Below, piece by piece: positions 63,509-64,000 of a stretch of 64,000 bases of DNA. The position numbers and the translations under genes are program-made. Position 1 is the first letter of the stretch. Every line of letters begins with the position of its first letter. The stretch comes from Escherichia coli (GTDB taxonomy: Bacteria; Pseudomonadota; Gammaproteobacteria; Enterobacterales; Enterobacteriaceae). The notes beneath the pieces are model-generated. The model was given only the letters and a program-made list of their open reading frames with translations. It was not told where the DNA came from and ran no database searches. The stretch lies in the NCBI RefSeq assembly GCF_003334815.1, contig NZ_QOWO01000017.1, one strand, 5' to 3'.

Positions 63509-63903
63509 GGAGTTCTACCGCAGGGGCGGGGGAACTCCAAGTGATATCCATCATCGCATCCAGTGCGCCCGGTTTATCCCCGCTGACGCGGGGAACACAC
63601 ATGAATGTCGGTTCAGACCGTGTTTTTACCCGGTTTATCCCCGCTGGCGCGGGGAACACAGTGCTGGACCATTTCAAATTCACAATAGATTCGGTTTATC
63701 CCCGCTGGCGCGGGGAACACGGAATGATATTTCAATAAATAATTATAACAATCGGTTTATCCCCGCTGGCGCGGGGAACACCCCTCACACCGATTCGCCA
63801 AACGGTGGAGAAGCGGTTTATCCCCGCTGGCGCGGGGAACACAGCCGGGCGAAATTTTGATTCATCGTGATGACCGGTTTATCCCCGCTGGCGCGGGGAA
63901 CAC
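63509..63903 (-). CRISPR. Type I-E CRISPR array: one degenerate terminal repeat, one repeat with a single mismatch, five canonical 29 bp repeats, six 32 bp spacers
   Basis: Repeat CGGTTTATCCCCGCTGGCGCGGGGAACAC at 63570, 63631, 63692, 63753, 63814 and 63875 (the 63570 copy has G to A, ...GCTGACGCG...); degenerate copy about 63509..63537; strict 61 bp periodicity; strand is inferred from the degenerate repeat being iap-proximal. Confidence 0.95.
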
Positions 63904-64000
63904 CCTGAACGGTGGGGAAAAACCCCATAAGCGCTAACTTAAGGGTTGAACCATCTGAAGAATGCGACGCCTCGGTGCCTCGTTAAGACGATGCCTCGCG

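Follow-up and report, generated by a model that had tools for sequence, protein, structure and literature searches.

The array downstream of iap in Escherichia coli K-12 was reportedly first described by Ishino et al. in 1987. In the convention of Diez-Villasenor et al. (2013), its repeating unit comprises a 28-nt duplicon and a 33-nt spacer, the initial C of each "29-nt repeat" deriving from the PAM (PMC3737337). The closest precedent for the arrangement reported here is given by Almendros et al. (2014), whose main text describes remodelling of the E. coli CRISPR-I locus by IS186 as a series of arrangements, A to I; among these a two-IS186 intermediate, AH1, is hypothetical and the cas-less arrangement G is derived from it (PMC3903273). 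Insertions into the cas genes themselves abolish interference (Sheng et al. 2023, Nat Commun; PMC10359306). IS186 prefers targets of the form 5'-GGGG(N6/N7)CCCC (PMC6925257, citing Chong 1985, SaiSree 2001 and Lee 2016).

We analyzed the end of a 64-kb stretch of E. coli DNA (herein the window), at which a short CRISPR array next to iap appears to stop. The window ends, with a probability of about 0.93, 75 nt into an IS421 element inserted in the seventh-oldest spacer of the array, the rest of the system lying beyond the IS. Interruption of an array by an IS is an arrangement already known, fairly common and ordinary. The locus, the IS family and a second IS upstream of cas3 by hok/sok are those of the main text of Almendros et al., as is the proposal of cas loss via recombination between two IS186 copies. 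The general story is thus in the literature. The present analysis contributes the precise target, which is a spacer and not a repeat, the inversions, and actual genomes that show the intermediate.

Architecture, direction and spacers of the iap-adjacent array

Direct reading of the sequence places the ATG of iap at 62450 and its TGA stop at 63485-63487, and the identical iap sequence is labelled iap by RefSeq in strains P13-6, 52F4 and BS74R-D. The array has the following layout (spacers S1 to S6 and repeats numbered outward from iap):

62450..63487, + strand: iap, for the alkaline phosphatase isozyme conversion aminopeptidase; a conserved gene bordering the array at its trailer end
63509..63537, - strand: degenerate terminal (leader-distal) repeat, GGAGTTCTACCGCAGGGGCGGGGGAACTC, with 16 of 29 bases in common with the consensus and ending in AACTC
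63538..63903, - strand: six spacer-repeat units with a 61-nt period; the crRNA sense is the - strand
63570-63598, 63631-63659 and 63692-63720, - strand: repeats 1 to 3, 29 nt each
63753-63781, 63814-63842 and 63875-63903, - strand: repeats 4 to 6, 29 nt each
63538-63569, 63599-63630 and 63660-63691, - strand: spacers S1 to S3, 32 nt each
63721-63752, 63782-63813 and 63843-63874, - strand: spacers S4 to S6, 32 nt each

The repeat reads CGGTTTATCCCCGCTG(G/A)CGCGGGGAACAC; five copies are identical, the majority form being CGGTTTATCCCCGCTGGCGCGGGGAACAC, and the first repeat is a G-to-A variant. Repeat starts are spaced by 61 nt five times in succession, with 0-1 mismatch per repeat, and the six spacers are all different; six perfectly periodic, near-identical 29-mers are therefore not a product of chance. 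Scanning both strands revealed no further repeat in 63904-64000 or elsewhere in the window. A search of 63300-64000 at Rfam gathering thresholds returned zero matches, a result that is uninformative for 29-nt repeats. Matching sequence carries CRISPR annotation from RefSeq in many genomes, and at the same place in relatives.

Near-identical repeats, a fixed period, unique spacers, the position adjacent to iap and the degenerate terminal repeat identify a type I-E array, the E. coli CRISPR2.1 array of the iap-cysH locus. On re-reading, the original prediction proved exact in its coordinates, degenerate repeat, six repeats, six spacer sequences and iap stop, and its assignment to an iap-proximal type I-E array agrees with the repeat family, period and position. 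The canonical I-E array of E. coli K-12 has the same position, repeat family and degenerate terminal repeat beside iap; it differs in that the repeats of the window end in AACAC (the "CRISPR-A" duplicon, PMC3737337). In addition, the array of the window's relatives is associated with hok/sok, which the main text of Almendros et al. ties to non-E2 (non-K-12-type) arrangements.

The - strand form of the repeat, GTGTTCCCCGCGCCAGCGGGGATAAACCG, is predicted to fold into a 7-bp GC hairpin (-15.2 kcal/mol, z = -3.2), and its palindromic core fits a hairpin of the kind that Cas6e recognises. Relatives have their leader and cas2 at the array end opposite iap, and the S5 protospacer has an AAG PAM only when the spacer is read on the - strand. 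Together, the hairpin strand, the side of leader and cas2, and the S5 PAM indicate that the array is read from the cas2 side towards iap, so that the units in the window are its oldest, leader-distal end. A leader is never expected beside iap, and the other flank of the six units is an IS.

The spacer search proposed in the original prediction (50,697 phage and 72,556 plasmid records, E<=0.05) gave perfect matches for S2 and S5. S2 matches phages P7, P1 and SJ46 and many P1-like plasmids over 32/32 positions; the protospacer lies in upf94.2, beside humD, and the P7 PAM is CTG, with the last PAM base alone kept. S5 matches a TIR-domain protein gene of E. coli IncF plasmids (32/32, AAG PAM) and the same gene on many Klebsiella plasmids (29/30). 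A mobile-element origin is thus indicated by the full AAG PAM of S5 and the perfect protospacer of S2. S1 has one weak plasmid match (29/30), and S3, S4, S6 and S7 (the interrupted spacer) have no phage or plasmid match in these collections at this threshold. The AT-richness of S4 (16% GC) had been taken to suggest a phage or plasmid origin; in a local test the DUST low-complexity filter does not mask S4, so that its lack of a match is a true negative for those collections, and the suggestion is not borne out by them.

The P7 protospacer (extracted locus L016, 601-632) is in a gene of unknown function next to the LexA-regulated humD, and that of the IncF TIR-domain gene is at L017 601-632. Two "plasmid" records of 4.9 Mb, NZ_CP141089.1 and NZ_CP134663.1, contain spacers 1-2 in array form; these chromosome-sized records are evidently chromosomes placed in the plasmid collection, and the matches are not plasmid-borne protospacers.

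The interrupted seventh spacer and its IS421

The 97 nt after the sixth repeat (63904-64000) have a GC content of 54.6%. The original prediction was right that this tail is not AT-rich, bears no further repeat and is not a leader. It resolves as follows:

63904..63925, - strand: left 22 nt of spacer 7, CCTGAACGGTGGGGAAAAACCC
63916-63925, - strand: one copy of the IS target-site duplication, GGAAAAACCC, forming the last 10 nt of the spacer 7 fragment
63926..64000, - strand: first 75 nt of IS421 (IS186-family, IS4 family), identical to the start of the 1339-bp IS of P13-6
63926-63948, - strand: 23-bp terminal inverted repeat of IS421, CATAAGCGCTAACTTAAGGGTTG, followed by 52 more IS bases

The IS end inside the window is non-coding and lies downstream of the transposase gene, which is on the - strand past the window. 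Of 5,426 complete E. coli genomes, 2,250 contain matches to the tail; a matching genome has a median of 3 such places and at most 22, and 847 places are on plasmids. Such multiple occurrence in genomes and plasmids is the behavior of a mobile element.

The complete insertion is seen in P13-6, which has 3 base differences from the final 14.6 kb of the window. Its IS (1339 bp, with perfect 23-bp inverted repeats and GGAAAAACCC on both flanks) lies inside a 32-nt spacer, and is followed by the second copy of the duplication and the remaining 10 nt of spacer 7. In related loci the IS is 1338-1341 bp long with a 374-codon open frame (nt 44-1168), named "IS4-like element IS421 family transposase" by RefSeq; both 23-bp inverted repeat ends were found in every related locus examined. 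Excising the IS and one copy of the duplication from P13-6 yields a 32-nt spacer, CCTGAACGGTGGGGAAAAACCCCCTCTTAACT, between two normal repeats, and precisely this uninterrupted spacer is found between repeats, without an IS, in three genomes (NCTC9041, A14 and J6). With an IS inside spacer 7 near the end of the window, the array merely looks short. Of the alternatives offered in the original prediction, an insertion abutting the array holds, in the form of IS421; a truly short or orphan array, with its leader altered or deleted, is not supported.

Spacer 7 as reconstructed includes the motif GGGG-AAAAAC-CCCC. The same genomes have another IS421 copy between cas3 and hok, with a separate 10-bp duplication, GGTTTTACCC, that lies in GGGG-TTTTAC-CCCC. 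Both targets agree with GGGG(N6/N7)CCCC and with a duplication of 10 bp, and GGAAAAACCC flanks the IS on both sides in P13-6, BS74R-D, UMNF18 and others. An IS186 hot spot was reportedly found by SaiSree et al. (2001) in the lon promoter of E. coli B. Spacer 7 resembles that site in its GGGG(N6/7)CCCC target and in a 10-bp duplication centred between the G-run and the C-run; the difference is that the element here entered stored foreign DNA, a CRISPR spacer, and not a native promoter. The window holds a single intact GGGG(N6/7)CCCC site in 64 kb, which makes spacer 7 a rare, high-quality IS186 target. The CRISPR repeat reads CCCC-N8-GGGG and does not fit the consensus, whereas the main text of Almendros et al. 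credits hot spots mainly to the GC-rich repeats; here the GGGG(N6)CCCC spacer is the target. The single intact site in the window is at 4433, within a tRNA-Ser gene (4421-4513).

Probable gene order beyond the insertion and its predicted consequences for the guides

We searched 5,426 complete E. coli genomes for the junction with the IS orientation of the window and found it in 23, of which 17 have spacer 6 and 6 do not. In 16 of the 23 the order is canonical: what remains of spacer 7 adjoins the IS, and beyond it come more spacers, an AT-rich leader, and the cas genes from cas2e on. This assignment is based on annotation for P13-6, BS74R-D, UMNF18, ETEC1716, LZHX12, IAL7250, 160-11H1 and ET846, and on the strand and distance of two junction matches for ETEC4090, ETEC4073, ETEC1706, NCTC9100, NCTC9087, X14-3, ES5 and LS992166. 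In P13-6 the part past the IS comprises 12 more spacers, then the AT-rich leader, then cas2-cas3 as an intact operon.

In the other 7 genomes the order is inverted, with cas3 after the IS and pointing away from iap (by annotation in 52F4, MLI104K2, ECCHD184, G1/2 and 64EVA; inferred for G6/7 and G8). The inverted segment is ~8.6 kb in 52F4 (extracted locus L003, 13527-24797); the inverted order is also seen in loci L008, L009, L011 and L023. The whole interval was read in 52F4, where the leader-proximal part of the array and the leader are at the far end, adjoining the second IS. The junctions read in 52F4, MLI104K2, ECCHD184 and G1/2 have GGGTAAAACC instead of GGAAAAACCC after the IS; 52F4, read at both IS copies, shows the two duplications exchanged between them. 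The swapped flanks point to inversion by recombination between inverted IS copies; the two IS421 copies of P13-6 are identical (0/1339 mismatches).

All 23 genomes with the window-type junction have cas genes, and none is cas-less; where the annotation was read far enough (eight canonical genomes and 52F4), cas2e is next to the leader. Some of these cas cassettes are decaying: BS74R-D and IAL7250 have an internal cas2-casA deletion, and cas3 is frameshifted in MLI104K2. The inverted cassette of 52F4 is also defective, as cas7e is absent between casB and cas5e (L003 19941-19994).

The best match to the window over 25 kb is 52F4, of inverted order, and BS74R-D and P13-6, both of canonical order, come next. 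All three differ from the window, by 20-30 mismatches per 60 kb (20 for 52F4). As the right IS junction is outside the window and none of these relatives is identical to it, the continuation is read from relatives and is a matter of probability. On this basis the canonical order is about twice as probable as the inverted one, and very little probability falls to anything else. In the canonical order, the window would continue with the remaining spacers, the AT-rich leader, cas2-cas1-cas6e-cas5-cas7-cse2-cse1-cas3, the second IS421, hok and cysH; its signature would be the IS followed by GGAAAAACCCCCTCTTAACT and a repeat, with TTTTTGTTAATTGCGTTTGCCACGGTTTGCAA as spacer 8.

A flipped leader-cas-array segment, with cas3 directly after the IS, is a possible but less probable form of the same insertion. 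It would leave the six spacers of the window ~10 kb from the leader and in the opposite orientation to it, and its signature would be the IS followed by GGGTAAAACCCCGCG and cas3. That 7 of 23 identical-junction genomes have this form, and that no genome matches the window better over 25 kb than 52F4, speak for it; the 16 canonical genomes, which include the next two closest (BS74R-D and P13-6), and the 20 positions in 60 kb at which 52F4 still differs from the window speak against it.

The same relatives differ from the window at a tRNA cluster. The window has two tRNA-Arg(ACG) genes beside a tRNA-Ser(GCT) gene (4066-4513), 52F4 and P13-6 have four and BS74R-D has five; in P13-6 the 414 nt extra at the tandem tRNA-Arg cluster appear as a tandem shift in the alignment. 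The difference could be copy-number variation or assembly collapse.

For either order of the interrupted array, spacer 7 would be destroyed as a guide, giving no normal crRNA, and spacers 1-6 would be uncoupled from the leader promoter. In the canonical order 1.35 kb would separate spacers 1-6 from that promoter, and their crRNA could arise only if transcription read through the IS. In the inverted order the separation would be ~10 kb together with a change of strand, and spacers 1-6 would depend entirely on transcripts that leave the IS. The transposase gene of the IS points to spacers 1-6 and ends 171 nt before the IS terminus; judged from this layout, read-out from the IS into spacers 1-6 is conceivable. 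A scan of the array-IS-array region of P13-6 gave one promoter-like and three terminator-like sites, no excess over shuffled sequence. Within spacer 4 (63724-63751, - strand) there is a sigma-70-like match, TTGTTA-16-TATCAT (9/12), along the direction of crRNA transcription; it is probably a chance match, since the matches of the region are no more than in shuffled sequence.

Unlike the cas-gene insertions of Sheng et al. (PMC10359306), the present insertion is in the array, where one guide would be lost and six old ones uncoupled. E. coli I-E systems are generally reported to be silenced by H-NS (PMC10359306), so that the functional cost of the IS may be nil.

The inverted pair of IS421 copies may be viewed in other ways. 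In the IS4 family, IS10 and IS50 bracket Tn10 and Tn5. By analogy, the pair might form a composite transposon that moves the whole I-E system, or a reversible inversion switch by which the six oldest spacers are joined to the leader or cut off from it, although we consider this very unlikely. Each IS421 has its own target duplication, which indicates two separate insertions and not a transposed unit, and the array sequences are found on chromosomes only, which counts against the composite-transposon reading.

The opposite IS orientation and loss of cas genes

In 266 further genomes IS421 is inserted at the same nucleotide in the opposite orientation, an arrangement ~ten times commoner than that of the window and mostly accompanied by deletion of cas. 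In FORC 064 the hok-side flank GGTTTTACCCCC comes directly after the IS; this genome has lost the leader, every cas gene and the remainder of the array, which fits arrangement G as given in the main text of Almendros et al. The right half of spacer 7 and a repeat follow the opposite-orientation IS in HSP425, ES4 and one other genome, and the junctions read in HSP425 and ES4 have GGAAAAACCC as the duplication. The same duplication in either orientation shows that IS421 has used the spacer 7 hot spot in both. A search for this direct-orientation intermediate together with spacer 8 gave no genome reaching 80% coverage; in three the intermediate is present but another spacer comes next.

In HSP425 two IS421 copies in direct repeat, each flanked by a separate duplication, enclose the array remainder and a cas remnant (L022 11728-19029); this genome is a real example of the intermediate that gives the cas-less form by one recombination. 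AH1, hypothetical in the main text of Almendros et al., is thus real in genomes of direct (HSP425) and inverted orientation; the inversions seen here have no description in that main text (PMC3903273).

These genomes bear on the orphan reading of the original prediction, in which hok and cysH would come immediately after the IS, with deletion of the leader, the remaining array and the cas genes, as in arrangement G; the signature would be the IS followed by GGTTTTACCCCCGCG and hok. Such a deletion form does exist at the same nucleotide, its opposite-orientation junction is by far the commoner, and over the final 25 kb of the window FORC 064 is a 100% match as far as the IS inverted repeat. The reading is nevertheless highly improbable. 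The 52 orientation-specific IS bases of the window (63949-64000) are opposite to those of the deletion form, two inverted IS copies cannot delete the interval between them through homologous recombination, and none of the 23 genomes with the window's orientation is without cas genes. What looked like the end of an orphan or short array is IS421 in spacer 7, in a junction whose 23 bearers among the complete genomes all keep their cas genes.

That the tail is a divergent or rearranged leader, or that the array plainly ends at 63903, is practically negligible: the sole support is that no repeat occurs within 97 nt, and the tail is 100% identical to a partial spacer plus an IS421 end. The alignment of 63904-64000 to leader sequence, named in the original prediction as part of what would refute it, fails; the tail does not resemble the AT-rich leader of P13-6 (L001 16646-16741), and the leader belongs at the other end of the array.

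With IS421 in spacer 7 as the preferred reading, the main value for the window is correct annotation, and a leaderless array end should be checked for a mobile-element terminus before the array is called an orphan. More broadly, one stored spacer created a consensus IS186 target that accounts for 23 interrupted arrays and 266 opposite-orientation insertions. A single spacer site behind all these genomes, most of the 266 without cas, indicates that spacer content can influence the fate of a CRISPR-Cas locus. These data refine, and do not overturn, the published picture of IS186-driven cas loss in E. coli, and supply real examples of an intermediate only predicted in 2014.

Further rearrangements were seen in these loci. 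In ES4 (L021 13840-26115) an ISVsa5-family element lies between the array and cas2, in the leader position, IS1 truncates cas3, and IS903B and IS26 replace the usual hok-cysH flank. The same internal deletion fuses a truncated cas2e (WP_240726065.1) to a casA fragment in genomes of either IS orientation (BS74R-D, L004 15802-16446, and IAL7250, L014 5360-6004, versus HSP425, L022 14066-14710); either the deletion is older than two independent insertions at the hot spot, or the alleles have been shuffled by recombination.
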